Shown piece by piece: positions 24,390 to 37,123 of a stretch of DNA of 64,000 nucleotides. Each line of letters opens with the position of its first letter. The first letter of the stretch is position 1. The notes beneath the pieces are model-generated. The model did not search any database and was not told the DNA's origin. It worked only from the letters and a program-made list of their open reading frames with translations. Source of the stretch: Thermoleophilia bacterium (GTDB lineage Bacteria; Actinomycetota; Thermoleophilia; Gaiellales; JAICJC01); NCBI GenBank assembly GCA_025928655.1, contig JAICJC010000001.1, forward strand, positions 2,898 to 66,897, given 5' to 3'. A program made the translations under genes and the position numbers.

Positions 24390-24422
24390 GGTGGCCTCCC
24401 GTGCGCGTGGTGGAATTCGAGT

Positions 24423-25519
24423 CTATCCCCGCACACGGGCCGGGACGAGCTCGGGCCGCCGCTCCGGAGCATCGAGCCACGGCCGCACCTGCTCCAGCGC
24501 GGCGCCCAGCCGGAACGGGGTCTCGTCCTCGTAGGTGCGTCCCACGATCTGGATGCCGACCGGCACGCCGTTGGCGGCGAACCCGGCGGGCACGACCAGC
24601 ACGGGGCAGCGGCTGAGGATGTTGAACGTCGGTGTCAGCATCGACTCGAAGTAGTCCTCGAGCATGCGGCCGCCCACCTCGAGCCCGTGGCCGACGTAGT
24701 CGTCGCCGGCCGCGAGGCCACGCGCGCCGCAGGTGGGGCAGATCAGTGCGTCGTAGCGCTCGAGCAGCTCGCCCAGCGGTGGGTACAGGGCCGCCTCCAG
24801 CTCCAGCTTCTCGAGCATGCCCGCCCCGGCGCCGTTCCGGCGCGCCCAGCGGGGGAACTCGAGCGCATACTCGGTCATGAGCTCGCCGTGCTCGGCCGCG
24901 GTCGCCTCCACCCAGGCCGCGAACATGAGCCCGAAGTGGACTGCGCTCGCCTGCTGGACGGCGTCGCCCGGCAGGTGTAGGTCGACCTCGTCCACCTCGA
25001 CGCCCGCCTCGCGCAGCGCCGTGGCGGCGGCCAGCGTGGCCGCGGCCACGTCGGGGTCGACCGCCCGGTCGCCGAGGTCGATCGACACCGCCACCGCAGG
25101 CCGGCGGCGGGTTCGGGCCGTGCGGGCAGCTCCAGCTTGGGCCGCAGCGAGGCGTGGTCGTGCGGGTGGGGGCCCGCGAGCGCGTTCTCGAACAGGGCGC
25201 AGTCGGCGACCGTGCGGGCCATCGGGCCGCAGTGGCAGTACACGTCCAGGTTGAACGGCGCCTCCTGCGGCACGCGGCCGTACGGCGGCTTGAAGCCGAC
25301 GACGCCGTTGTAGGCGGCCGGGATGCGGATCGAGCCGCCGATGTCCGAGCCGCTCGCGAGCGTCGCCGTGCCCGACGCCAGGGCGGCGCCGGAGCCGCCG
25401 GACGAGCCGCCGACCGCGAAGTCGGGGTTCCAGGGGTTGCGGGTGACGCCCCAGATGCGCGAGTGGGTGAAGCCGGCGCAGGAGAACTCGGGCGCCGTGG
25501 TGCGCGCGTGCACGATGGC
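24423..25519 (-). pseudogene. amidase-signature family amidase remnant: N-terminally truncated and frameshifted near 25091-25097
   Basis: AIVHARTTAPEF...NPWNPDFAVGGSSGGSGAALASG...GGSIRIPAAYNGVVGFKPPYGRVP lies in the frame of ORF 24875..27520. The C-terminal half (VAVSIDLGD...IQIVGRTYEDETPFRLGAALE) lies in the frame of ORF 24423..25688. Roughly 110-125 N-terminal residues, including the catalytic-Lys region, are absent. Confidence 0.6.
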
Positions 25520-27196
25520 GCCGGGGATGTCGGCGGCGCGTCCGCTGACCACGTGAGCGCAGGCCTCGACGACGCGGTCGCGGCCGATGCCCTCCACTCG
25601 ATCGAGCGACCCGAGAAACGCTGGGCCGAGCACGGGGTCGAGCCATGGGTAGCGCTCGCGGTCGGCGGCTGTCGTCTGTCGCTTCCATGAGGCGCGGACT
25701 TCGGCCACAAAATGCGTTCCCGGGTCTCGCTCGACGTCCGTGTTTTCCAGTCGGTCGCCCCGCGCTCGCTCGGCCCGAAGCTCCTTCGTCAGCCGCTCCG
25801 TGCGCCGTCCCTCGTCGCGGGCGCGGCCGCGTTCGAGCTGCAGCCGTTCAACGAGCTTGAGCCGATCCTGCTCGGCAGCGGCCAGCCGCTCCCGCAGGTC
25901 GTCCAGCTCGCGGCGCGCACCCGCCAGAGCCGCCTCGGCTGAGCCGGCGAGCGCCTTCGTCTCGGTGTCGGCGAATTCGAGCACGCGCAGGCGCGCCTCG
26001 ACGAGGTCGCGCTCGAGGATCCGCCGGACGTGAGCCGCCTCCGCCCGGAGCTCCTCGATGCGGCGCTCCGCCCCGGCGAAGAGCGCTCCCACCTGCCCCT
26101 GGAGCTCACGCCCGTCCGTGATGGCCCTCTCGAGCGCCTCGGCCTCGGCCTCGCCGGCGGAGGCCATCTCCTCAGCCTCTTGCTCCGGCTCAGGTTCCGG
26201 TTCCGCCTCCGGCGGGGGCGTCTTGCGCATCGGTGGCAGCCACGGCGGCCCCTCCGGGTAGATGCTCGCCGGCCGCTCGGGCTCGGCTCCCTCGGGGACA
26301 TCGACGATCGACAGCTCAATCCGCTCCTCCGCGGGTGTCAGACGAATGATCTGCACCGCGATCCGCTCGCCCACCTCGAGAAAGTCCTCCGCGTGCGAGA
26401 CCCACTCGTGGCTGATGCTCCTGCTCGGGACGAGGCCGGTGATGCCCGGAAAGATCTCGACGAATGCCCCGAAGTTGCGCAAGCCGTCGACGAGCCCCTC
26501 AACCACCATCCCCTCGCGGTACTGCTCGGTGAGTCGCGCCCACCCGTCCGGCTCGAACGGGAGCAGCGACGCCTGGATGCGGCCGGTCTGGGCCGTCCCG
26601 TCCCCGACACGCACGCGGACACCCTGACCGAGACGCACGACTTGATCGGGATCGAGCCCCGCAAGCTCGGTCAGGTGCGACCTGTGTGCGAACGCCCGGT
26701 AACCACCGGCGAGGGTCAGCTCGGCCCCGGCACCGAGCACGCGCGTCACCACTCCCCCGAGCTCCGTGCCGGGTTCCGGGGCATCCGCCGGCGCGCCGCC
26801 GCGGCCGAACGCCGCCGTCACCTTGCGGATCACCTCGGCCGACTCACCCGTTCGGTGCACGAAGAAGAGCGGGTGCGCGGACGGATCGGCCACCTCCTCG
26901 CCGAACGGCCACCAGATTCGGATCGCGCCGCCATAGACGTCCAGCCGAGGAGGTAGGAGGTCGGTGAGCTCCCACGAGCGGTCGCCGGTCGCCATCAGGT
27001 ACAGGTGCGCGTCGGATGGCAGCGCCCCCCGCAGCCCCGCCAGGTCGATCAGCGGCTCCGACGACCATGTCGGGAGGGTCGCGCACACGACGGCGTGCTC
27101 GCGTCCAGGGTCGAGGATGTCGCGCGCGAGCGCGTCGACCGCCGCGGTCGTTGTCACGTCGATCACGTGAAGCGCGTCCGTGCCCAGGACGCTCAT
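24875..27196 (-). CDS. S1 RNA-binding-domain / coiled-coil protein (native part about 25520-27196); the ORF as it stands continues in frame into the amidase remnant
   Basis: ATG at 27196 overlaps the addA-like stop (ATGA). A canonical S1 domain reads GMVVEGLVDGLRNFGAFVEIFPGITGLVPSRSI...RIELSI, with a weaker one upstream. An acidic linker and about 170 aa of heptad-like E/R/L-rich sequence follow. Confidence 0.65.
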   Translation of the reverse strand: MSVLGTDALHVIDVTTTAAVDALARDILDPGREHAVVCATLPTWSSEPLIDLAGLRGALPSDAHLYLMATGDRSWELTDLLPPRLDVYGGAIRIWWPFGEEVADPSAHPLFFVHRTGESAEVIRKVTAAFGRGGAPADAPEPGTELGGVVTRVLGAGAELTLAGGYRAFAHRSHLTELAGLDPDQVVRLGQGVRVRVGDGTAQTGRIQASLLPFEPDGWARLTEQYREGMVVEGLVDGLRNFGAFVEIFPGITGLVPSRSISHEWVSHAEDFLEVGERIAVQIIRLTPAEERIELSIVDVPEGAEPERPASIYPEGPPWLPPMRKTPPPEAEPEPEPEQEAEEMASAGEAEAEALERAITDGRELQGQVGALFAGAERRIEELRAEAAHVRRILERDLVEARLRVLEFADTETKALAGSAEAALAGARRELDDLRERLAAAEQDRLKLVERLQLERGRARDEGRRTERLTKELRAERARGDRLENTDVERDPGTHFVAEVRASWKRQTTAADRERYPWLDPVLGPAFLGSLDRVEGIGRDRVVEACAHVVSGRAADIPGAIVHARTTAPEFSCAGFTHSRIWGVTRNPWNPDFAVGGSSGGSGAALASGTATLASGSDIGGSIRIPAAYNGVVGFKPPYGRVPQEAPFNLDVYCHCGPMARTVADCALFENALAGPHPHDHASLRPKLELPARPEPAAGLRWRCRSTSATGRSTPTWPRPRWPPPRRCARRASRWTRSTYTCRATPSSRRAQSTSGSCSRPGWRRPRPSTASS

Positions 27197-30186
27197 CCTA
27201 CGTCGGCGGCGCCGCCCACGGCCGCCCGCACGCGGGCGTCGAGCCGGCCGGCGTCGCCCGGGTCGTAGCGGCCGGCCACGACCGATCCGTCGTGGGCCAC
27301 GTGACACCACGCCGTCTCCACCCGCGCCGGCCCCGCCTCCAGCGCCGCCAGCGCATAGATCGCGGCCTGGAGCGCGTACCCGGGATCGTCCGGCCCGTGG
27401 AGCGTGCCCGTCTTCCAGTCGACGATCAGCACCGTCCCGTCCGCCTCGCGTGCCCAGACGTCGGCGACGCCCTCGACGATCGCGCCGTCGATGCCGAGCA
27501 GGAGCGGCCACTCGGCGCACAGCTCCTCAGCGGCCGCCAGGCGGCGGCCGATCTCGCCCTCGCGGATCGTCGCGAACAGCCTCTGCGCCCGCTCGTCCTG
27601 CCAATCGAGCGACGGTGCGCGCCAATCGACGTGCTGGATCGCGTCGTGGAACCGCTCCCCGAACGCGCGGGCGCCGGTCGGCCCGGCGGCGCCGGCGCCC
27701 GCCGCCGACCCGTCCGCCGGCGGCGGCTCGAGCTCGAGCTCGAGGGACGAGTAGCTCACCCGCAGCCCCCGCAGCGGGTTCGCCGCCGGGATTGGCGCCA
27801 CCGGTGTCGGCGTCGCGCCGGCCTCGGCCAGCGCCGGCACCTCGACCTCATCCGGCACGACCTCCTCCGCCGGCGTCACGTACCGCACCGCCACGGACGC
27901 CGGCGGCGCCCCGGCGATCCAGCGCATCTGGCCCTCGTACGCGCGCGTGCCGTCGGCCCGGAAGTACGCTCGGCCGATCACGGTCAGGTGCCGCTTCGCG
28001 CGCGTCATCGCCACGTAGGTGATCCTCCGCTCCTCCTCGTCGCCGAGGGCGTTGTCCTCCTCGCACAGCGCCTTGTGGTCGAAGCCGCTGCGCAGCTCGA
28101 GCCCGTCCGGGCGGCAGCGGATCCCGACCAGGGTTCCGTCCTGGGAGACGAGCACCGCCGGCCCGCCCGCGCCGCCGGCGTTCGAGCAGTCGGCGAACAC
28201 GACCGCCGGGAACTCGCGCCCCTTCGCGCCATGCACGGTCATCAGCTGCACCGCGTCGAGTTGCTCGTCGACGACGACCGCCTCGCCGGGGTCGGCGCCG
28301 AGGTCGACCGCCCGCTGCATGAACCGCAGGAACCCGCGCAGGTCGGCCCCGCGCACCTGGCCGTACCGTTCCGCCATCAGCACGAGCCGGCGCAGGTTCG
28401 CATACCGCGCCGCCCCGTCCCGAAGGCCGAGGGCGGCCAGCTCGTAGTCACGGAAGCGCAGGCACTCCTCGACCAGCTCGCCGAGCGGGATCCCCGCGCG
28501 CCGCGCCCGCAGCGCGAACAGATCGCGGCCGAACTCCTGCAGCGCCGGCACGACGTCGATCGCGTCCCACAGCGCGCCGTCCGCCCCCGCCGCCTCGCGC
28601 AGCGCCAGCAGGTCGTCGTCGCACGCGGCGACGTACGGCGACGCGAGCACCCGGACGAGCCGCTCCTCGTCGTGCGGGTTCTCGACGAGCGCGAGCAGGG
28701 CGAGCGCGTCCGCCACCTGCTCGTGCTCGGCGAAGACGTTCCCGCCGATCAGGACGGTCGGCACGCCGGCGGCGCGCAGGGCGGCGTCGTAGAGGCCGAT
28801 CCCCGTGCGGGCCCGGAAGAGCATGACGATCTCGCCCCAGCCGAGGCCCTCCTCGTCGTGCAGGCGCCGCACGCTGGCGGCCGCCTCGGCGGCCTCCTGC
28901 TCCCGCGTCGCCTTCCGCCCCGTGTCCTCGACCACGACCAGCTCGACCGGCACGGCTGGCACCGGCTCGGGCGCGACGGCGACCGTGAGCGGGTCGAAGC
29001 CCGTCAGGATCCCGCGGAACCAGTCGTTCAGGGGCTCGAGCACCGCCGCCTGGCTGCGGTAGTTCTCGCGCAGGGGGAATGTCGCCGTCCGCGCCTGCGC
29101 CTCGCGGAAGCAGGAGACGTCCGCCCACCGGAAGCGGTAGATCGACTGCTGCGCGTCGCCGACGCGGAGCACCCGCTCGGCCCCCTCGCCGAGCAGCGCG
29201 ATCAGCTCGTCCTGGAGCGGGTTCACGTCCTGGGCCTCGTCCACGTATACGCGCCGGAACCGGTACGCGGCCCGGGCGGCCGGGTCGTCTCGCAGGACGT
29301 CGCGCGCGAGCAGCTGGAGATCCTCGAAGTCGACCGCGCCGCGCTCCTGCTTCAGCCGCGCGTACTCGCCCCCGAGGCAGGCGACATATGCGGCGAAGGC
29401 CTCGAGATGGGGCCGGCAGGCGATGTCGGCGAGGGCCGCGATCGCCTCGCCGACCACCGCGTCGAACGCCGCGCAGACGGACGCGAACTGGGCGGCGACG
29501 TTCCCTCCGATCTTCGACATGCCGAGGTCGATGCCGGCGTCGGCGCTCGCGCGCGCCGTCTCCGCCCTCCGACAGCGCACCGCGCTCATGCCCGGCGTCG
29601 AGAGCACCGCCTCCGCCGCCTGCCGCAGCGGCGCCGGGTCGAAGGCGGGCGCGGGCGGCACGGGCACGGCCGGGCGGGCGACCCCGCCGGCGCGGCCGCG
29701 GTCGAGCACCGAGCGGGCCGCCGCCCGCGGATCGGTGAGCGCGCCCAGCATCGGGACGAGCCCGGGATGCTCGCACGTCTCCGCGGCCGCGTCGACCGCG
29801 TGCTCGAGCAGCATCCGGCTCTCGAGCTCGTCCAGCACGACGAGGTCGGGAGCGACGCCGGCGGCGTGCGCCCGCTCGCGCACGATCCGGCCGCACAGCG
29901 CGTGGAACGTGCCCACCCAGGCACAGGACAGGTCGACCGCGGGCTCCGACGCGTCGCGCCCCTCCACGAACTCGGCCTGGATCCGGGCCACGAGATGCGC
30001 CGCCGCGGCGTTGTTGAAGGCGACGACGAGGATCCGCTCGACGGGGATGCCCCGAGCCGTGACGTCCTCGAAGACGGCCCGCGCCAGCAGCGTGGTCTTG
30101 CCGGATCCGGCGCCGGCCGAGACGACGCCGGACGCATGCGAGTCGAGGATCGCCCGCTTCTCGTCCGAGAGCTGCGTCAGCGCCAT
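27193..30186 (-). CDS. addA: UvrD/Rep-family helicase with C-terminal PD-(D/E)XK (RecB-type) nuclease, AddA-like
   Basis: Helicase motifs AGAGSGKTT, VDEAQDVNP, VGDAQQSIYRFRWAD, TVHGAKGREF and YVAMTRAKRHL. Nuclease IVDWKTG plus QAAIYALA. The ATG at 30186 is used instead of the longer Arg-rich track ORF. Confidence 0.85.
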   Translation of the reverse strand: MALTQLSDEKRAILDSHASGVVSAGAGSGKTTLLARAVFEDVTARGIPVERILVVAFNNAAAAHLVARIQAEFVEGRDASEPAVDLSCAWVGTFHALCGRIVRERAHAAGVAPDLVVLDELESRMLLEHAVDAAAETCEHPGLVPMLGALTDPRAAARSVLDRGRAGGVARPAVPVPPAPAFDPAPLRQAAEAVLSTPGMSAVRCRRAETARASADAGIDLGMSKIGGNVAAQFASVCAAFDAVVGEAIAALADIACRPHLEAFAAYVACLGGEYARLKQERGAVDFEDLQLLARDVLRDDPAARAAYRFRRVYVDEAQDVNPLQDELIALLGEGAERVLRVGDAQQSIYRFRWADVSCFREAQARTATFPLRENYRSQAAVLEPLNDWFRGILTGFDPLTVAVAPEPVPAVPVELVVVEDTGRKATREQEAAEAAASVRRLHDEEGLGWGEIVMLFRARTGIGLYDAALRAAGVPTVLIGGNVFAEHEQVADALALLALVENPHDEERLVRVLASPYVAACDDDLLALREAAGADGALWDAIDVVPALQEFGRDLFALRARRAGIPLGELVEECLRFRDYELAALGLRDGAARYANLRRLVLMAERYGQVRGADLRGFLRFMQRAVDLGADPGEAVVVDEQLDAVQLMTVHGAKGREFPAVVFADCSNAGGAGGPAVLVSQDGTLVGIRCRPDGLELRSGFDHKALCEEDNALGDEEERRITYVAMTRAKRHLTVIGRAYFRADGTRAYEGQMRWIAGAPPASVAVRYVTPAEEVVPDEVEVPALAEAGATPTPVAPIPAANPLRGLRVSYSSLELELEPPPADGSAAGAGAAGPTGARAFGERFHDAIQHVDWRAPSLDWQDERAQRLFATIREGEIGRRLAAAEELCAEWPLLLGIDGAIVEGVADVWAREADGTVLIVDWKTGTLHGPDDPGYALQAAIYALAALEAGPARVETAWCHVAHDGSVVAGRYDPGDAGRLDARVRAAVGGAADVG

Positions 30187-32909
30187 ACCAGCCCGTGCAG
30201 GCAGTAGCGGGGGCAGTCGTCCGGCGGGGGCGCGAGCTCGCCGGCGCGCATCCGCGCCACCGCGTCCCGGGCGCCGGAGACGGCGGCGGCAACGCGGGCG
30301 TCCCATGCCTCCGCCGACTCGAGCCACGCGTCCTTCACCTCGTCGTAGGGCTGGGCGTCGGCGCGGACGCGCACGTCGATCCGGTCGTTCATCACCGCCA
30401 GGTACGCGCCCCCGCCGGGCTCGGCGCCGAACGCCCGCCCGGCCATGAGGGCGTAGAGCGGGATCTGGAGGTACACCTCGCCCTCCTGGTCGAGCCGGCG
30501 GCCGCTGCGCTTGTAGTCCACGGCGACGACGAAGCGGCCGTCGGGGGACACATCGATGCGGTCGCAGGTGCCGGACAGGATGACGCCGGGGACGATCCAG
30601 TCGACCTTGAAGCGGTGCTCGAAGCGGGTCGGGACGAAGCGCGGGCCGCGGCGCGCCTCCTCGGCCAGGCGGTGGCCCAGGCGCACGCCGAGCGCGTGCA
30701 CGAACGCGTCGAACGCGCGGCCCGCATCCGGCGGCCGCACCTCGTCCGCCTGCTCCCGAAGCGCCGCCAGCATCGCCTCCCGGTAGCGGTCGAGTGCGGC
30801 CGGCGTGCACGCGCCCACGCCTTCGGCGGCCATGCGGGTGAACGTCCGCTCGAGTACCTGGTGGCCGAACGTCCCCTCCGCGGCCGGATCCCACTGCAAC
30901 TCCAGCGGACGCGGCGCCAGCACGCTCGCGACGAACCAGCCATATGCGCAGCCGACGAACCGCTCGAGCTCGGTCACACGCACCCGGTCGCGCACGACGC
31001 CGCAGGTGAGGCCGCGCTGGCCCCTTCGGCGCTTCAGGGCGGCGGCGACCGCCGGCACCGCGGGGCGGGTCTCGAGCGCCAGCCGCCGTTCCTGCTCCCG
31101 TGACGAGACGGCGTCGGCCAGCCCGGGTACGAGGCCTGTCACGCCGCGCCGCACCGGCACGGCCGCCGCAAGCAGCCGCTGCGACTCGACCCAGTACGGT
31201 GAGGGTGCGAGCTCGCGGCCGTCATCGTCGGCGAACCGCCGAATCAGCGTCAGCCGCTCCCCCGCGCAGGCGCACGCGGCATGGAAGCGTAAGAGGGCCT
31301 CGCTGGTGCCCGGGGCCCGCGGCGGGAGGAACTCGATCCGTTCCCGCAGGCCGTCAGGCAGGTACGGATCGGGCCTGGGGGAGGCCGGGAGCGTCCCGTC
31401 CTCGAGTCCGAGCACGATCACCTCGTCGAAGGCGACGCCGCGGGCCTGGGAGAGGTCGAGCAGGGCGACCGCCCCGATCGGCCCGGACTCCTCGGGGAAC
31501 CCAAGATCGGCGAGCAGCGCCCCCAGTCTGCCCGGCAGCACGTCGCCACGCGCGGCCGGGCGGTCGTCGTCGGGCAGCTCGGAGGCCGCGCCGCCGAGCA
31601 CGGCCAAGGCAGCGTCGTCGAGCAGGTCGGATGGCGACGGCGCACTCGACGAGGCCAGCTTCAGCCGCTCGTGCCCAACCCGAACCAGGAAGGCGGCCTG
31701 GCTCCAAAGGGGTTGGTCACGCAGGCCGCGGAGCGCGATCGCCGGCTGGATCGCCTCGCCCTGCCAGCGCGCCATGAGTTGCCCGCGCGACGCGCGCGAC
31801 CCCCGGCGCATCGCGGCTTCGAACGCGTCAACAGCCGGAGGGTCTGCGCCGGAGTACGGGCTGCGAAGCCATGCGACCAGGCGGTCGACAGATTCCGGCC
31901 CGTCCGCGTCGAGGGCGAACGCGAAGAGCGAAACGAGCGCTCGGGCCAGCGGCGAGGCGGCGAACGGCCGGCGCACGCGGTGGCGTGCCTGGACACCGGC
32001 CTCCGACAGCGCGGCGCGCAACCCCGCCAAGTGTTCGGTAAGCCGCGGCGCGACGATCGCGATCTTGTTTGGGGGCGTTCCAGCGCGGAGCGCGGCGACG
32101 ACTCGCGCGCTCGCCATGCGGTGGACGACATCCGTGCCCGCGCCCTCCAGCCACTCCACGCCTCCGGCTGGTTCGGGAGCGGCATGCTCGAAAAGGCGCC
32201 GTTCCAGGATGTCGATGCCGCCGATTGGCGCACGCGCCGGATGCCAATTGACGGAGTCGGCGTCATCCAGCCAGCGTCGTACACGCGTATGGCGGGCGGC
32301 GAACACCCGCCGCCCCTCCTCGTATGCGAGACCGGCCTCCACGGGATTGCGTTTGGCGAGCGCGCGGAGGAGCGCCCACTCGATCGGCGCGTAGTCGTCG
32401 AAACCGATGACGAAGATGGGGTCGAGCTCGACCCTTTCAGCCCCATCCACGGTCGCCCACTCCGGCGCGTCGGGCGAGGGTATCTCGGCCGTTGCCGCGT
32501 AGATGTCGGCCGCGGTACGGAGCGGTGCAAACCCGGTGGCCTTCGCCGCTGCCGTGAATTGCGAAGGGCTTGCGCGCGCCGCCCGGACCTCGTGAATGAG
32601 GCGCTCGAGCGGCGCGACGTGGCCCGCGCCGGGCGGATCAAGCTGCTCCGTGATGGCGCAGCGGAGGGCAAGTCCGTCGCGTCGCACGGCGTCTTGCAGG
32701 CCGGCGGCGTCTCGGGTGCGCCCGAAGAGGGTCGCAAACGTCCCTGCCCGACATCCCCAGATCGCGCCGTTCGCGGTGGCGATTTCGAGCGCGCGCCCCA
32801 GCACGATGTCGTCCCGGGCTACCAGCGTTCCGCCGCCGTCGCGCCAGCGGTCGACAAGCAGCCGATCCACCCCGCTCGAGCGGGAGCCCACGTGCAGCAT
32901 CAAGCCCAT
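30177..32909 (-). CDS. addB: AddB-like helicase-nuclease subunit (degenerate Walker A, C-terminal PD-(D/E)XK nuclease)
   Basis: 910 aa. The N-terminus HVGSRSSGVDRLL replaces GxxGxGKT. The C-terminus carries GTCDRIDVSPDGRFVVAVDYKRSG, LQIPLYAL and cysteines (VGCAYGWF, CPRYC). It overlaps addA by 10 bp. Confidence 0.8.
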   Translation of the reverse strand: MGLMLHVGSRSSGVDRLLVDRWRDGGGTLVARDDIVLGRALEIATANGAIWGCRAGTFATLFGRTRDAAGLQDAVRRDGLALRCAITEQLDPPGAGHVAPLERLIHEVRAARASPSQFTAAAKATGFAPLRTAADIYAATAEIPSPDAPEWATVDGAERVELDPIFVIGFDDYAPIEWALLRALAKRNPVEAGLAYEEGRRVFAARHTRVRRWLDDADSVNWHPARAPIGGIDILERRLFEHAAPEPAGGVEWLEGAGTDVVHRMASARVVAALRAGTPPNKIAIVAPRLTEHLAGLRAALSEAGVQARHRVRRPFAASPLARALVSLFAFALDADGPESVDRLVAWLRSPYSGADPPAVDAFEAAMRRGSRASRGQLMARWQGEAIQPAIALRGLRDQPLWSQAAFLVRVGHERLKLASSSAPSPSDLLDDAALAVLGGAASELPDDDRPAARGDVLPGRLGALLADLGFPEESGPIGAVALLDLSQARGVAFDEVIVLGLEDGTLPASPRPDPYLPDGLRERIEFLPPRAPGTSEALLRFHAACACAGERLTLIRRFADDDGRELAPSPYWVESQRLLAAAVPVRRGVTGLVPGLADAVSSREQERRLALETRPAVPAVAAALKRRRGQRGLTCGVVRDRVRVTELERFVGCAYGWFVASVLAPRPLELQWDPAAEGTFGHQVLERTFTRMAAEGVGACTPAALDRYREAMLAALREQADEVRPPDAGRAFDAFVHALGVRLGHRLAEEARRGPRFVPTRFEHRFKVDWIVPGVILSGTCDRIDVSPDGRFVVAVDYKRSGRRLDQEGEVYLQIPLYALMAGRAFGAEPGGGAYLAVMNDRIDVRVRADAQPYDEVKDAWLESAEAWDARVAAAVSGARDAVARMRAGELAPPPDDCPRYCLHGLVWR

Positions 32910-32964
32910 CTGCCACCCGCAATCCTATCGCCGCCAATCGCCCTCGACGGGAACGGATCTGGTT

Positions 32965-33609
32965 CTACGGCCCGGTCACAGTCACGGTGACCGTCGGCCC
33001 CGGAACGGTGACCGTGATCGGCTGGCCGAACACCGTCGTCGTCGGCCCGGTAACCGTCTGAACGGTCGTGCGCACCGTTGTGACCGTGCGGTTGACCGTG
33101 GTCGTCTGCGTGTCCGTCGACGACACGGTCACCGGCACCTTGACGGTGCGGTTCACGTCGACCTTGACCGGGACGGTCTTGCCCTTGATCACCGTGTGCG
33201 CCGGCAGCTTGACCGTCTTCGCGGGGATGTGGACGGTCTTGCCCTTCACCTTGACGGTGATGGCGGGCGTCGAGATGAAGCGGCTGCCGTCGATCGTGAT
33301 GATCTTGCCCTTCAGCTTGACCGTGCTCGTGAGGACGGCCGCGCTCGCATGCCCGCCGACGACGCCGCCCAGCCAGAAGCCGCCGACGATGAGCGTCAGC
33401 GCCGCGACCACGGCGGGAATGGCATACCACGGGCGCAGCCGGTGCCTGGTCGCGGCGAGCCAGCCGCCGTGCTCGTCCAGGCGGTCGCGCACGCCGTCCA
33501 GGTTCGGGCGCCGGCCGCTCGCCCAGCGTCGCGAATCCTGTGCCCGGTCGCGGAGCCCGTCCATGGCATCCAGCAGTCGACCCCGAAGGTCCTCGATCTT
33601 GCCTCCCAT
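32965..33609 (-). CDS. single-pass membrane protein with an extracytoplasmic Thr/Val/Lys-rich repetitive beta-strand region
   Basis: Charged N-terminus, one TM segment (AIPAVVAALTLIVGGFWLGGVVGG), then repeats such as VKVKGKTVHIPAKTVKLPAHTVIKGKTVPVKV and TVTVPGPTVTVTVTGP. Confidence 0.6.
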   Translation of the reverse strand: MGGKIEDLRGRLLDAMDGLRDRAQDSRRWASGRRPNLDGVRDRLDEHGGWLAATRHRLRPWYAIPAVVAALTLIVGGFWLGGVVGGHASAAVLTSTVKLKGKIITIDGSRFISTPAITVKVKGKTVHIPAKTVKLPAHTVIKGKTVPVKVDVNRTVKVPVTVSSTDTQTTTVNRTVTTVRTTVQTVTGPTTTVFGQPITVTVPGPTVTVTVTGP

Positions 33610-33689
33610 CGGAAGTGGTAAACTCTACCATCCGTACCCAGACAGGGTGACGCGTTATCCAGGCGTTCACGGGCCCCACGGCTCGCCGC

Positions 33690-34574
33690 TCATGCGTAGG
33701 CCGAGAGCTGGAGCAGCTCCCCGTCCAGCTCGAGCCCGGTCGCGGCGATCAGCTTCGTCGCCGCCCGCAGGTCGGTGCCGAGTCCCGCCGACCGCCGCCG
33801 GGAGAGGGGGACGAGCGAGAGCCGGTGCAGCATCCGGTTCACGGGCTCGATCCCGGCGGCGGGCCGGTCGAGCTGGTCGAGGGCGTCCATCAGGTACCCG
33901 TCGAGCAGCTTGCGGTGGTGGTCGGCGTAGGCGTCCGGCCGCGACAGGTAGTCGAGGCAGGTGTGCCCGTCCGGCAGGACGAGGATGACGCCGCACTGGC
34001 CCGGCCGGGCCGGGAACGCCTCCCGCAGCTCGTGCAGCGCGCCGCGATGGTGCGCGAACAGGTCGGCGTGGGCGGCGGTCGGCGACGAGACGCCGCGGCG
34101 GGTCGACTGCTCGTCGATCGCCCGCCACACCTCGCTCTGGGCGGCGCCGCGCACGAGCGGGTCCGGCGCGAGCATCCGCGCCTTGCGCAGCCGCAGCTCC
34201 GGGCCGGCCGTGTGCTCGGCGGCCGCGAACGCGGCGGAGCGCATCCGCCACCGCCCCGCCTCGACGCAGCTCACCGGGATCGGCGTCACTGACCTCGGCG
34301 CGACGAGCACCGTCAGGTTGAGGATCCGGTTCTGCTTCGCGCCGGTCAGCTCCTCGCCGTCGTAGAGCAGCACCCGCTCGTCCAGCGGGTTCTCGACGAC
34401 GAGCTCCGGCACCGTCCCGTCCGGCCCCGTCTCGGTCACGCGCACGCCGCGGCGCAGGCCGTCGGCGAGCGTCGCGTAGGCCGCCTCCGGGTCGCGGCGG
34501 GGGTAGAGCGGGACGACCGTGATGCCCCGGTGGACGGTCGGCTCGTCGAGCTGGGCGGGCAGGGTGATCGGCAT
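33690..34574 (-). CDS. conserved protein of unknown function (motifs VVPL, GEELTGAKQNR, PVSCVEAGRW)
   Basis: ATG at 34574 is preceded by SD GAGGAGG at a 10-nt spacing. The track start (TTG at 34601) falls inside the palindrome. I recognise the motifs as a conserved DUF-type family but cannot name it with certainty. Confidence 0.7.
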   Translation of the reverse strand: MPITLPAQLDEPTVHRGITVVPLYPRRDPEAAYATLADGLRRGVRVTETGPDGTVPELVVENPLDERVLLYDGEELTGAKQNRILNLTVLVAPRSVTPIPVSCVEAGRWRMRSAAFAAAEHTAGPELRLRKARMLAPDPLVRGAAQSEVWRAIDEQSTRRGVSSPTAAHADLFAHHRGALHELREAFPARPGQCGVILVLPDGHTCLDYLSRPDAYADHHRKLLDGYLMDALDQLDRPAAGIEPVNRMLHRLSLVPLSRRRSAGLGTDLRAATKLIAATGLELDGELLQLSAYA

Positions 34575-34598
34575 CGGGCGGGGCCTCCTCGGTGGCGC

Positions 34599-34626
34599 CA
34601 ATTGACGTTCGATCGAATGTCAATTG
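34599..34626. promoter_or_regulatory. 28-bp near-perfect palindrome CAATTGACgTTCGATCGAAtGTCAATTG (candidate operator or attenuator hairpin)
   Basis: 26 of 28 positions are self-complementary, and the two exceptions would be G-U pairs in RNA. It lies 25 bp upstream of the ATG at 34574, in the 100-bp gap after the ImmA-like gene. Confidence 0.5.
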
Positions 34627-34674
34627 CGTGGGGGGTGGTGTGCCGAGGAGACGTCCGCAGACGCCGCCCGATCC

Positions 34675-35235
34675 TTACACGCCGCGCCAGCGGTCGACCT
34701 CGGCCTGGAGGTCGACCGGGAGCGCCTCCAGGTAGCCGAGCGTCACGAGCCGGAACCCCATCGCCACGTCGGAGACGCCGAATGCGGCCGAGAGCGCGAT
34801 CGGGTCGGGGCCGTCGCGGTCGGCCGCCTCGCGCACCATCGCCTCGGGCATGAGCAGCTCGGCGGCGAAGCGGTTGGCCTCGCGCTCGCGGGTGCGCACG
34901 TCGCCCTGAACGGTCTCGACGTCGGAGGGACGGCACAGCACCGCGGCGCCGTCGGAGTGGAGCAGGTGGTGGCCGACCTCGTGCGCGACGGTGAACCGGC
35001 GCCGCGGGGCCGGCTCGTCGCGGCGCACCCAGATCTCCCACCGCGCGGGCAGGAGCACGCCCGAGAGCGGCACCGAAGGCGCCGCCCCGGCGATCGGGCC
35101 CAGGTCGTCGGCCGCCCGCACCCGCAGGCAGCACAGGCTGGCGGCCAGCTCCTCGACGTCCACCGGCGGGACGGAGGCGGCGTACGTCCCGCAGAAGCGG
35201 CCCAGCGCCTCCCGGGCCGCCGTGACCTCATCCAC
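34675..35235 (-). CDS. ImmA/IrrE family metallo-endopeptidase (COG2856)
   Basis: HEVGHHLLH zinc motif plus EREANRFAAELLMP. The GTG start overlaps the upstream gene by 8 bp. Confidence 0.85.
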   Translation of the reverse strand: MDEVTAAREALGRFCGTYAASVPPVDVEELAASLCCLRVRAADDLGPIAGAAPSVPLSGVLLPARWEIWVRRDEPAPRRRFTVAHEVGHHLLHSDGAAVLCRPSDVETVQGDVRTREREANRFAAELLMPEAMVREAADRDGPDPIALSAAFGVSDVAMGFRLVTLGYLEALPVDLQAEVDRWRGV

Positions 35236-35821
35236 CGCCGGTGAAGAGGTCGTCGACCTCGGCGACGCGCGGCGCGGCGTCGGCCGCCTCTGCCGCGGCC
35301 GGGGGCGGCGCTCCGGCCGGCGCCGCGCGCAGGAACGCCGAGGCGGCCGTCATCCCCACCTGCGGCGGGGCGATCCGCCGTCCCATCTCGAGCAGGCCCT
35401 CGGGCACCTCCAGGATCCGGGCCAGGGCCGCCACCACCGGCGGGCGCACCCGCGCCGGCGCCAGCTGCCCGGTCTCGAGCGCGTGCACGTGCTCCTCGAC
35501 CTGCGCCCGCGCCTCGGGGAACCCGAGCATCTCGGCCAGGCGGGCGACGAGCGCCCCGCGGGTGGTGCCCGTCCGCGCGCGCAGGGCCGGGAGCACCTCG
35601 GCCCAGGCCTGCGGCGGGTCGCTGCTCGGGTGGGCGGCGCGGGCCATGACCTGCCCCTCGGTGACGTCCGTCCGCGGGTTGGCGGCCAGGTAGGCGGCGA
35701 GCATGGCGGCGAGCGCTTCGCGCTCGGCCGCGTCGGCGGCGGCGACCGCGGCCGCCGGGTCGGGTCGCTCGCCCCGCTCCCAGGCGGCGACGAAGGCGTC
35801 GAAGGCGCGCTCGGCGCTCAT
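35228..35821 (-). CDS. XRE-like helix-turn-helix protein (partner of the ImmA/IrrE protease)
   Basis: The internal ATG (residue 42 of track ORF 35228..35944) overlaps the sigma-factor stop (ATGA). The HTH-like segment reads TRGALVARLAEMLGFPEARAQVEEHVHALETGQL...VVAALARIL. Confidence 0.65.
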   Translation of the reverse strand: MSAERAFDAFVAAWERGERPDPAAAVAAADAAEREALAAMLAAYLAANPRTDVTEGQVMARAAHPSSDPPQAWAEVLPALRARTGTTRGALVARLAEMLGFPEARAQVEEHVHALETGQLAPARVRPPVVAALARILEVPEGLLEMGRRIAPPQVGMTAASAFLRAAPAGAPPPAAAEAADAAPRVAEVDDLFTGGG

Positions 35822-36405
35822 CCCCGAAGCTCCTTGCCCATCCGTTCCATCGCGCGGAAGAAGATCACATCGACGTTGCGGCGGCTGATGTCGAGCCACC
35901 CCGCGATCTCGGCGCCGCTCATACCGCCCCACAGCCGCCCCCACACGACCGAGCGCTGGCGCTCGTTGAGCACGGACAGGAGCTGCTCGACCACCTCACG
36001 GGAGGCGATCTCGTTGTACCCGTCCTCGTCGACCGGCACCTCCGCCAGGTCGTCGAGCGGGGCGTCGGCGGGCTTTCGACCGTCGTGGAACGATGCGACC
36101 ACCCGCCGCGCCATGACGACGAGCAGCCCCGACGGCGACTCGATCCGGCCCGCGCCCAGGTAGACGGCCCGCACGAACCGCACGTACACGTCGGACTCGA
36201 GATCGTCGACGACGTCGATTGGCGCCTTGGCCGCGCACACCGACCGCACCAGCATCCGGTGCCGCTCGAACACGAGCGCGACGCACCGCTTGGCCGTCTC
36301 CAGGCCGGCCTCGCCCTCGGCGTAGTACTTGCGCGCATGCGCGACCAGATCCGCGTCTGACTTCTCGCGGAGCGCTGCGAACGACGTCGGGTGCTCGGAA
36401 CCCAC
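35818..36405 (-). CDS. sigma-70 family (ECF-like) RNA polymerase sigma factor
   Basis: 195 aa. The region 2-like segment is DDLESDVYVRFVRAV. The region 4 HTH is ERQRSVVWGRLWGGMSGAEIAGWLDISRRNVDVIFFRAMERM. Confidence 0.8.
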   Translation of the reverse strand: MGSEHPTSFAALREKSDADLVAHARKYYAEGEAGLETAKRCVALVFERHRMLVRSVCAAKAPIDVVDDLESDVYVRFVRAVYLGAGRIESPSGLLVVMARRVVASFHDGRKPADAPLDDLAEVPVDEDGYNEIASREVVEQLLSVLNERQRSVVWGRLWGGMSGAEIAGWLDISRRNVDVIFFRAMERMGKELRG

Positions 36406-36532
36406 CGGTGCAGAATGCTAAGCCACATACGCCAGACGTCGCACACCGGCGTGCGCCGCTTACACCCGATGACTTTCCGACGAGGTGCGAGTCTCTCCAC
36501 CACGCACACGAAAAACCCACAGGAGAGTCGCA

Positions 36533-37123
36533 ATGGGAAAGATCGTTGTCACGGAGTTCGTCTCGCTCGACGGCGTCATGGAGGATCCGGGCGGGGCCGA
36601 GGGCACGCCCGCGGGCGGCTGGGCGTTTCGGTTCGAGCGCGGCAGCGACGGCGACACGTACAAGCTTGAGGAGCTGATGGACGCCGAGGCGATGCTGCTC
36701 GGCCGCGTCACCTACGAGGGCTTCGCCAGGGCATGGCCGACGATCGAGGACGAGCAGGGCTTCGCCGCCAGGATGAACAGCATGCCCAAGTACGTCGTCT
36801 CGTCGTCGATCGAGGACGCGGGCTGGGAGAACTCGACCGTCCTGCGCGGCGACCCGGTCGCAGAGGTGACGGCGCTGCGCCGGAAGATCGACGGGAACAT
36901 CCTCGTCGCCGGGAGCACCTCGCTCGTGCACGCGCTGCACGACGCCGGCCTGGTGGACGAGTATCGCCTGATGATCTACCCGGTCGTGCTCGGGAGCGGC
37001 AAGCGCCTCTTCCGCGACGGGGCGGCTCCGGCGGGCTACGAGGCCGTCGAGGTGCGCCCGGCCGGCGCCGTGGCCGTGATGACCCTGCGGCCGCTCCCCG
37101 CGGGCGGCGCCGCCGCGGCATGA
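36533..37123 (+). CDS. dihydrofolate reductase family protein (RibD C-terminal domain type)
   Basis: MGKIVVTEFVSLDGVMEDP...LLGRVTYEGFA...ILVAGSTSLVHAL...DEYRLMIYPVVLGSGKRLF. SD AGGAGA lies upstream. Confidence 0.85.
   Translation: MGKIVVTEFVSLDGVMEDPGGAEGTPAGGWAFRFERGSDGDTYKLEELMDAEAMLLGRVTYEGFARAWPTIEDEQGFAARMNSMPKYVVSSSIEDAGWENSTVLRGDPVAEVTALRRKIDGNILVAGSTSLVHALHDAGLVDEYRLMIYPVVLGSGKRLFRDGAAPAGYEAVEVRPAGAVAVMTLRPLPAGGAAAA

Follow-up and report, generated by a model that had tools for sequence, protein, structure and literature searches.

What does a sigma factor do when it is encoded together with a metalloprotease and the helix-turn-helix (HTH) protein that this protease might cut? Protease-plus-repressor switches (ImmA/ImmR, IrrE/DdrO, CapP/CapH) are a main route by which bacterial stress reaches mobile elements, repair genes and immune operons, and a sigma factor beside such a pair has been recorded once in passing, without explanation: a sigma-70 gene lies next to capH/capP in 24 cyclic oligonucleotide-based antiphage signaling systems (CBASS), for example in Bradyrhizobium, where it was not studied further (Lau et al. 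2022). The window analyzed here, a 64,000-nt stretch of Thermoleophilia DNA with a G+C content of 70–78%, holds a compact three-gene version of this arrangement. At 50% identity its family comprises roughly a thousand clusters, few of which carry any annotation. It consists of a sigma factor gene, the gene of a 197-residue HTH protein that we name X, and the gene of an M78 peptidase, and it stands ahead of a gene for an ARPP-1 domain protein. We propose, at roughly even confidence, that the three genes form a regulatory cassette in which X would restrain sigma until the protease cuts X, after which sigma would amplify its own operon and switch on ARPP-1 and further cargo. A readable promoter code, a constant target and swappable cargo make this wiring of a sigma factor into a protease switch testable. 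The three genes are as follows.

35818–36405, minus strand: sigma-70 family sigma factor of the extracytoplasmic function (ECF) type, 195 aa, with sigma2, a disordered linker (residues 114–134) and sigma4

35228–35821, minus strand: protein X, 197 aa, with a 4-helix N-terminal domain, an XRE-type HTH, a linker and a C-terminal helix

34675–35235, minus strand: M78 (ImmA/IrrE/CapP-type) zinc metallopeptidase, 186 aa, with HEVGH at residues 84–88, Cys100-Arg101 and ERxANxFAAELLMPE

The sigma–X–M78 triad and its promoter-like motif

Read along the minus strand, the order is the sigma gene, X, the M78 gene, a 100-nt spacer, ARPP-1, a membrane-protein gene, and an AddB-like and an AddA-like gene. 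At the sigma/X junction (GGATGAGCG) the sigma stop codon TGA (35820–35818) and the X start codon ATG (35821–35819) share a 4-bp ATGA overlap, and at the X/M78 junction (GGTGGATGAGG) the X stop codon TGA (35230–35228) and the M78 start codon GTG (35235–35233) lie in an 8-bp overlap, GTGGATGA. An earlier note on this DNA had described these three overlapping frames as probably co-translated and had suggested looking for similar triads elsewhere. The frames, their coordinates and both overlaps are confirmed, and the triad is a conserved, translationally coupled unit, with the identical 4-bp and 8-bp overlaps in five further loci (L001, L003, L028, L029 and L030; L numbers denote the loci compared, which come from 18 reference-genome loci and from metagenome contigs). 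It recurs in related Gaiellales/Thermoleophilia loci and in a distant second subfamily, where sigma and X overlap by 11 nt.

The genes are real rather than chance reading frames, since X has hundreds of homologous clusters: about 90 near-full-length homologs share 60–97% identity, the named sources being Gaiellales, Gaiellaceae and Thermoleophilia metagenome-assembled genomes (MAGs), and the second subfamily adds more than 280 clusters. An exhaustive hidden Markov model search returned 964 clusters at 50% identity, 632 of them at E<=1e-10, and the top 150 share one architecture of 185–238 aa. Upstream of the triad, divergent genes run outward from 36485–37123 (plus strand) and encode a RibD_C/DHFR-like protein, an AraC-type regulator, a glyoxalase and a sugar ABC transporter; they are kept in several loci, including L001 and L030, which implies that the triad occupies a stable chromosomal position and that variability is confined to the downstream side.

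The sigma factor fits the ECF type in size and domains, having sigma2 and sigma4 only within 195 aa (ECF range about 170–200 aa). A Pfam profile search matched Sigma70_r4_2 (3.7e-9) and did not detect Sigma70_r2, and the NCBIfam model TIGR02937 (sigma70-ECF) scored 44.0 bits, barely over its cutoff of 42.9. The AlphaFold model, built from 26 homologs with a predicted local distance difference test (pLDDT) score of 81, gave a full-length Foldseek match to sigmaE (1OR7, E=3.5e-5) as well as matches to AlgU, BldN, SigK, SigL, CnrH and SigW.

The protease belongs to Peptidase_M78 (PF06114, 2.4e-19) and carries both marks of that family, the HExxH motif as HEVGH and the downstream glutamate ligand within ERxANxFAAxLxMPE. 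HExGH, Cys-Arg and ERxANxFAAxLxMPE are invariant among 16 protease sequences from both subfamilies. The earlier assignment of the protease and its HTH neighbor to the ImmA/IrrE family of switches thus holds, and sequence matches in the PDB and PADLOC both point to CapP as the closest relative: the PADLOC capP profile matches at 4.8e-25, over positions 21–165 of 242 only, and the best relative in the PDB is CapP 7T5T (4.9e-7), aligned over CapP residues 34–173 of 291. The protein ends after the helical domain that follows the peptidase, and so it lacks the GAF domain of CapP and IrrE. Cys100 aligns with the switch cysteine of CapP 7T5T, a residue found in CapP and not in IrrE, and by this alignment Cys100 would sit on the zinc and keep the protease latent. 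CapP and IrrE sense single-stranded DNA (ssDNA) through a groove between peptidase and GAF domain, ImmA, likewise GAF-less, responds via RecA or RapI, and zinc and redox state have also been linked to IrrE activity. A DNA-damage trigger is therefore an analogy here and not a result, because the protease lacks the GAF domain that senses ssDNA. What signal a GAF-less, cysteine-switch M78 protease answers to is a question that the locus opens to test.

Protein X reaches the threshold of no curated family in Pfam or NCBIfam; a sub-threshold match to HTH_31 over residues 77–144 is present in 16 of 22 family members. Its structure model (pLDDT 80) predicts a 4-helix N-terminal domain (residues 3–62), a 5-helix XRE-type HTH domain (73–148), a disordered Pro/Ala-rich linker (153–181) and a short C-terminal helix (187–194). 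Positions invariant in both subfamilies include H113, E116 and G118, the last two forming the XRE 'ExG' signature, and D190-x-L192-F193 on the conserved C-terminal helix. The 5-helix domain matches the folds of C.AhdI, C.BclI, the N-terminal domain of CapH (7T5U, TM 0.74), HipB, P22 c2, SinR and DdrO (6JQ1), and it is through these fold matches that X qualifies as the XRE/Cro-C1 HTH protein expected beside an M78 protease. CapH and DdrO are two known substrates of the M78 family. In CapH the C-terminal helix docks on the CapP peptidase and cleavage occurs just upstream (PMC13228613), a layout that the disordered linker and invariant C-terminal helix of X match.

Alignment of sigma-upstream regions with the spacers between M78 and ARPP-1 uncovered a shared motif, TGTAAG-N17-(C/G)GAC. 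The elements concerned in the window are these.

36435–36464, minus strand: P_sig, TGTAAGCGGCGCACGCCGGTGTGCGACGTC, with a -35-like TGTAAG, a 17-nt spacer and a -10-like CGAC, its GAC 33 nt before the sigma start codon

34650–34679, minus strand: P_arpp, TGTAAGGATCGGGCGGCGTCTGCGGACGTC, overlapping the M78 stop codon TAA (34677–34675)

36415–36420, minus strand: TAGCAT hexamer within the block GTATGTGGCyTAGCAT, 9 nt ahead of the GTG start of sigma

In its strict form the motif matches the window exactly twice, at 36464 and 34679, both on the minus strand, against an expectation of 0.02 from shuffled sequence; in a loose form it matches about 477 kb of loci 58 times, compared with 21 in shuffles, and these matches are concentrated at sigma and ARPP-1. 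A survey of about 25 related loci, in which sigma could be scored in 20 and ARPP-1 in 21, found the motif, pointing toward the gene, in the 150 nt before sigma in 19 of 20 and ahead of ARPP-1 in every one (20 of 21 within 150 nt upstream; in L005 it lies 8 nt from the start). The distance from GAC to the start codon is 32–34 nt for sigma (27 and 21 nt in two loci with an extrapolated start) and 20–40 nt for ARPP-1 in the other loci tabulated. The motif also stays with ARPP-1 when this gene is divergent (L005), about 1 kb (L024) or about 7.5 kb (L025) away, about 4 kb away on the other strand (L027), or past a 1.9-kb insert (L028, L021).

The two boxes are conserved and the sequence of the 17-nt spacer is not, and the motif is asymmetric and always oriented with its gene. 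It therefore fits a promoter better than the operator of a dimeric repressor, given its asymmetry, its orientation, its fixed distance to the gene and its conserved boxes around a variable spacer. Moreover, neither the sigma promoter by itself nor the sigma and ARPP-1 promoters together showed a conserved inverted repeat. The SigX-type promoter of Bacillus subtilis, TGTAAC-N17-CGAC, is similar. As the same -35/-10-like motif precedes the sigma operon and ARPP-1, as expected of an ECF factor and its targets, sigma most likely recognizes TGTAAG-N17-(C/G)GAC, so that the motif would be sigma's own promoter; its presence before sigma's own operon implies positive feedback. A sigma gene coupled to its partner by a 4-bp overlap and placed behind an autoregulated promoter is also the standard layout of ECF sigma/anti-sigma pairs. 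The TAGCAT hexamer is conserved across 16 aligned sigma-upstream regions and might possibly be a basal, housekeeping-type -10 box that yields a nearly leaderless transcript.

Additional copies of the motif precede an inserted S1/coiled-coil gene (L019) and a gene for a secreted protein that is followed by an AddBA-like pair (L015), and in L026 the VWA and TY-Chap3 genes each stand behind a GTAAGA-N18-GAC motif. A further copy, GTAAGGCGCCGGCGAGGTCGGACGAC, was seen at position 19625 of L016, downstream of an addA-like gene and 19 nt ahead of the ATG of another gene.

ARPP-1 as probable constant target and the variable cargo

Downstream of the triad, the window contains the following genes.

33690–34574, minus strand: ARPP-1 domain protein, 294 aa, with its ATG at 34574 and a GGAGG ribosome-binding site

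32965–33609, minus strand: single-pass membrane protein, 214 aa, with a Thr/Val-rich C-terminal region

30177–32909, minus strand: AddB-like PD-(D/E)XK nuclease subunit, 910 aa, the first gene of a variable cassette

27193–30186, minus strand: AddA-like UvrD-family helicase with a C-terminal PD-(D/E)XK nuclease, its start overlapping the end of addB

24875–27196, minus strand: gene of an S1-domain/coiled-coil protein, overlapping the addA stop by ATGA

This is the order that the earlier note gave, namely a conserved gene, a membrane protein and an AddB-like/AddA-like pair. The conserved gene, then without a name, is ARPP-1 (PF20208, 4.1e-77, 259.9 bits against a cutoff of 27), and the match is full-length, residues 17–302 of the longer reading frame covering profile positions 3–297 of 297. 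The ARPP domain was defined as part of conflict systems, linked to ADP-ribosylglycohydrolase (ARG), HIRAN, WYL regulators or a deacetylase, in a paper that describes neither a sigma/XRE/M78 regulator nor a promoter for it (Iyer, Burroughs, Anand, Aravind 2022, PMC9503650). The recurrent core across loci runs from sigma, X and M78 to ARPP-1 and the membrane protein, whose gene follows ARPP-1 in most loci (at least 12). To judge from the motif, ARPP-1, a predicted enzyme of conflict systems, is most likely the core, constant target of sigma, which would give the domain a first regulatory handle on the conditions of its expression. The membrane protein has no family match in Pfam, NCBIfam or PADLOC, and PADLOC assigns no defense system to sigma, X, ARPP-1 or the membrane protein.

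The AddBA-like pair is of another kind. Its domains are those of AddAB, that is, a UvrD helicase with a RecB-type nuclease and a PD-(D/E)XK domain in the AddB-like subunit, and both proteins fall far below the equivalog cutoffs for AddA and AddB. The AddB-like protein matches PF12705 (8.8e-25), TIGR03623 weakly, partially and far below cutoff, and addB_alphas with 39.9 bits against 486.5; the AddA-like protein (1005 aa as searched) matches PF00580, PF13361 and PF12705, reaches 228.9 bits against 707.65 for addA_Gpos, and in PADLOC draws only generic UvrD/GajB models. L030, a Gaiellales MAG (GCA_036278615.1), matches the window at 97.8% DNA identity from 46399 to 32897 and from 24413 on. Between these flanks (window 24413–32897; L030 13506–20263), it has a different AddB'/AddA' pair, with 37% identity over 132 aa and 30%, respectively, and the S1/coiled-coil gene is missing. 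On the left the breakpoint falls some 12 nt into addB, right after a conserved TAGGAT-N12-ATGGGC. A pair swapped between near-identical genomes, together with scores below cutoff, indicates a swappable cassette rather than a stable housekeeping locus, and AddBA-like genes follow the triad in only about five of at least 20 loci. Hence the earlier idea that the triad switches on the genes behind it survives in part: the motif is evidence that sigma controls ARPP-1, and the link to addBA is not a fixed feature.

Nevertheless, the AddBA-like cassette may be co-regulated with the triad, because the gaps before the membrane-protein gene and addB are short (80 and 55 nt) and have no terminator on the gene strand, the S1/coiled-coil gene of L019 has a motif copy, and the AddBA-like unit of L015 stands behind one. 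A scan of 27–37.5 kb for consensus sigma-70 promoters and terminators found no promoter and no terminator on the gene strand. The L019 homolog of the S1/coiled-coil gene is placed after M78 and before ARPP-1 and has a motif copy of its own upstream. In the window, this reading frame shows homology to the L019 protein (638 aa) through residue 564 and no further (junction near 25505); it continues in frame into an amidase fragment (Pfam Amidase, positions 91–219 of 445) and then into low-complexity sequence; the junction is either a rearrangement scar or a chimera of MAG assembly.

The cargo varies further among relatives. In the second subfamily, the triad precedes a type I restriction-modification (R-M) system (L025), MNT/HEPN with a methylase and a ResIII helicase (L027), or SNF2 with type I R-M fragments (L024), and in L026 (4905–7391, 9109–10555) two ADP_ribosyl_GH genes and a DSPc/PTP phosphatase gene lie downstream in the same operon, with VWA and TY-Chap3 divergent. 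In L005, L024, L025 and L027, ARPP-1 lies close by on the opposite strand. In L003 (10402–18600) and L017, a contractile injection system cluster (Pvc16_N, sheath, gp19 tube, CIS_tube, baseplate/spike) follows the triad in place of ARPP-1 and the TGTAAG motif at the M78 stop is lost; a sister contig whose X is identical to that of the L003/L017 lineage (L004) has ARPP-1 and AddBA-like genes instead. Because distant triads front R-M, MNT/HEPN-methylase-helicase, ARG/phosphatase or contractile-injection clusters, the triad looks like a portable regulator of defense-type cargo. Toxin-antitoxin and restriction-type genes (HipA/HipB, Gp49/HTH, RHH/PIN, Phd/ParE, Mrr) around the triad in L001 (6682–8257), L025 (6277–7404) and L027 (2098–4311 and 6903–7418) are consistent with a defense-island setting. 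A hotspot of variable cassettes is thereby flagged in Gaiellales, which are abundant but poorly studied soil actinobacteria. In L028 (11150–12963) and in L021, a classical ECF sigma gene, an RskA_C anti-sigma gene and a 200-aa gene lie on the opposite strand between the M78 stop and the ARPP-1 promoter.

Readings of the cassette

How, then, would sigma be held and released? In the mechanism we propose, X would be kept in fixed proportion to sigma through the ATGA overlap and would inactivate it through the 4-helix N-terminal domain, while the protease would take hold of X by its HTH domain and its conserved C-terminal DxLF helix, as in CapH–CapP. The protease, latent with Cys100 on its zinc, would stay closed until a stress signal opened the switch; candidate signals are DNA damage or phage, by analogy, and possibly redox or zinc, given that there is no GAF domain. 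It would then cut X in the disordered linker, and the freed sigma would read TGTAAG-N17-(C/G)GAC at its own operon, with positive feedback, and at ARPP-1 and the membrane gene, and thus turn on its own operon, ARPP-1 and cargo. Extra motif copies or operon fusion would bring defense-type cargo under the same control, in this locus the AddBA-like cassette and the S1/coiled-coil gene.

An anti-sigma role of X is favored over a repressor role for several reasons: gene order and ATGA coupling are as in sigma/anti-sigma pairs, one motif stands before both the sigma operon and its target, which indicates autoregulation, X has a domain ahead of its HTH that is absent in CapH, and no conserved palindromic operator was found. 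The extra domain would go with the extra partner, sigma. On this basis we suggest tentatively, and with a little less confidence than for the cassette as a whole, that X is a new kind of anti-sigma factor, soluble and built on an XRE-HTH scaffold, whose 4-helix domain sequesters an ECF sigma and which is destroyed by a dedicated cytoplasmic cysteine-switch metalloprotease of the CapP/ImmA type. If true, ECF sigma activation would gain a new route, and the sigma factors beside capH/capP would be explained as well: they would make a local derepression switch amplify itself and drive promoters scattered across a defense island, with ARPP-1 as the constant target.

Each known system shares part of this design. 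The triad resembles CapH–CapP in having an M78 protease nearest to CapP with an aligned switch cysteine, a partner made of XRE HTH, linker and C-terminal helix, and a place upstream of variable defense-type operons. It differs in that the protease has no GAF domain and hence no CapP ssDNA-binding groove, X has an extra 62-residue N-terminal domain (the HTH of CapH is itself N-terminal) and a long disordered linker, sigma is an obligatory and translationally coupled first gene, and the conserved cis-element is an asymmetric promoter-like motif rather than a palindromic operator. With ImmR–ImmA (ICEBs1, phage phi105) it shares a short, GAF-less M78 protease beside an XRE-type HTH protein that is the presumed substrate; ImmR and ImmA, in contrast, govern the excision of a mobile element without any sigma factor, while here the order is sigma, HTH, protease, co-directional and overlapping, in no mobile-element context. 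DdrO–IrrE (PprI) of Deinococcus also combines an M78 protease with an XRE repressor, in charge of a stress regulon, and DdrO (6JQ1) is among the fold matches of X as IrrE (8SLM, 3DTE) is among the sequence matches of the protease, but IrrE carries a GAF domain and lacks the cysteine switch, the operator of DdrO is the palindromic radiation/desiccation response motif (RDRM), and there is no sigma factor. The ddrO and irrE genes are also not adjacent in Deinococcus.

ECF sigma/anti-sigma pairs (sigmaE–RseA, SigW–RsiW, SigK–RskA) offer a sigma2–sigma4 fold with a coupled partner gene behind sigma, an autoregulated promoter with an AA-containing -35 and a short GAC/CGTC-type -10 about 17 nt apart, and proteolysis of the partner as the classical release route. 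In contrast, the candidate anti-sigma here is a soluble protein with an XRE HTH in which neither a transmembrane helix nor an anti-sigma domain can be recognized, and the protease proposed to cut it is an M78 enzyme of the cytoplasm instead of a site-1/site-2 membrane protease or ClpXP. The likeness to the ARG/ARPP conflict systems (PMC9503650) lies in ARPP-1, a clear PF20208 member, and in L026, where a relative of the triad is directly upstream of ARG and phosphatase genes with TY-Chap3 near; the sigma/XRE/M78 regulator and the promoter motif set the present locus apart. CapW/BrxR, of the WYL type, and CapH/CapP are alternative regulators of immune operons, and the finding of ARPP with a WYL regulator in some genomes and with the triad in others fits this pattern of interchangeable regulators.

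Several points weigh against the proposed cassette. The motif could in principle be read by another factor, and part of its conservation is shared descent, as most loci come from one bacterial class. A protease without GAF leaves the signal and any ssDNA sensing unsupported. Hexamers of the form TANNNT, 12 nt before the ATG of the membrane gene (33622–33627, TAGAGT) and of addB (32922–32927, TAGGAT, conserved in L030), both on the minus strand in DNA of about 73% G+C, may be promoters of their own that give short-leader mRNAs. Lastly, we infer the binding of X to sigma, and the modeled fold of X is nearest to the DNA-binding proteins CapH, DdrO and C proteins, for which a repressor role would be equally natural. 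This last point leads to the alternative that we take most seriously, albeit as a rather less probable one: X would be a CapH/ImmR/DdrO-type repressor of the sigma operon that never binds sigma, its cleavage would derepress the operon, and newly made sigma would activate ARPP-1 and cargo. The relatives of the XRE fold include the protease substrates CapH and DdrO, the protease is CapP-like, sigma genes do lie beside bona fide capH/capP in the 24 CBASS systems (Lau et al. 2022), and the block GTATGTGGCyTAGCAT, found only at the sigma promoter, could hold an operator over a housekeeping -10 box. Nevertheless, no conserved inverted repeat through which such a cascade might act was seen at the sigma promoter or in common with the ARPP-1 promoter, the motif shared by operon and target speaks for autoregulation by sigma rather than simple derepression, and both the N-terminal domain of X and the tight sigma–X coupling, by ATGA or by 11 nt, would be left unexplained.

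A reading of the triad as the Gaiellales counterpart of IrrE/DdrO or PafBC, a housekeeping DNA-damage regulon inducing repair genes (AddAB, with ARPP-1 as a DNA-lesion enzyme) with no role in conflict, appears improbable. The AddA/AddB-like domains are indeed present, AddBA-like genes follow the module in several loci and stand behind the motif in L015, and the flanking genes (RibD_C, AraC, glyoxalase, ABC transporter) are ordinary ones of the chromosome and are kept across loci. However, the AddBA-like pair is exchanged for one with 30–37% protein identity at flanks about 98% identical, is absent in most loci and scores far under the AddA/AddB equivalog cutoffs, the relatives carry R-M, MNT/HEPN, ARG/phosphatase or contractile-injection cargo with toxin-antitoxin neighbors, and ARPP was placed in conflict systems by the authors who defined it (PMC9503650). 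Far less probable still is a relic of a mobile element, in which a prophage or integrative and conjugative element (ICE) left behind an ImmR/ImmA pair and a phage-type late sigma that no longer regulate host genes. Such pairs are typical of prophages and ICEs, and the cluster after the triad in L003/L017 is phage-tail-like, yet the triad, in the window as in most loci, has no integrase, tRNA or phage structural gene beside it; its place in the chromosome is kept, and purifying selection clearly acts on its three proteins and both promoters over hundreds of clusters. An origin of the triad itself in a prophage or ICE was rejected, there being no supporting genes in the flanks.

The ARPP-1 leader

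The earlier note had also pointed to a local palindrome as a possible binding site for X. It lies in the leader of ARPP-1.

34599–34626, strand not assigned: 28-bp near-palindrome, CAATTGACGTTCGATCGAATGTCAATTG, AT-rich, within an insertion of about 46 nt (about 34590–34636)

The palindrome is unique in the window and is shared only with L030, where it has one central change (TCGATCGA to TCGAGCGA). The homologous spacer of L001, L004, L029 (with an X that is 90% identical) and some 15 more loci does not contain it, and metagenome contigs gave no exact match. It was thus ruled out as the operator of a conserved system, being a lineage-private insertion of about 46 nt limited to one species-level lineage and missing in L029 and all other loci.

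Predicted folds of the ARPP-1 leaders were surveyed in L001, L006–L020, L028, L029 and the window. RNAalifold yielded no consensus structure for them. In 13 of 15 leaders, the minimum free energy (MFE) fold of the single sequence pairs UCUCCUC just after the -10 box with GAGGAG of the ribosome-binding site; z-scores are mostly near zero, and this pairing of anti-Shine-Dalgarno with Shine-Dalgarno sequence may be mere sequence conservation. The window leader (34571–34655) is the sole standout, with an MFE of -28.7 kcal/mol and a z-score of -3.2, and in its predicted fold the palindrome forms the inner hairpin of a 10-bp stem between UCUCCUCGG and the Shine-Dalgarno region.

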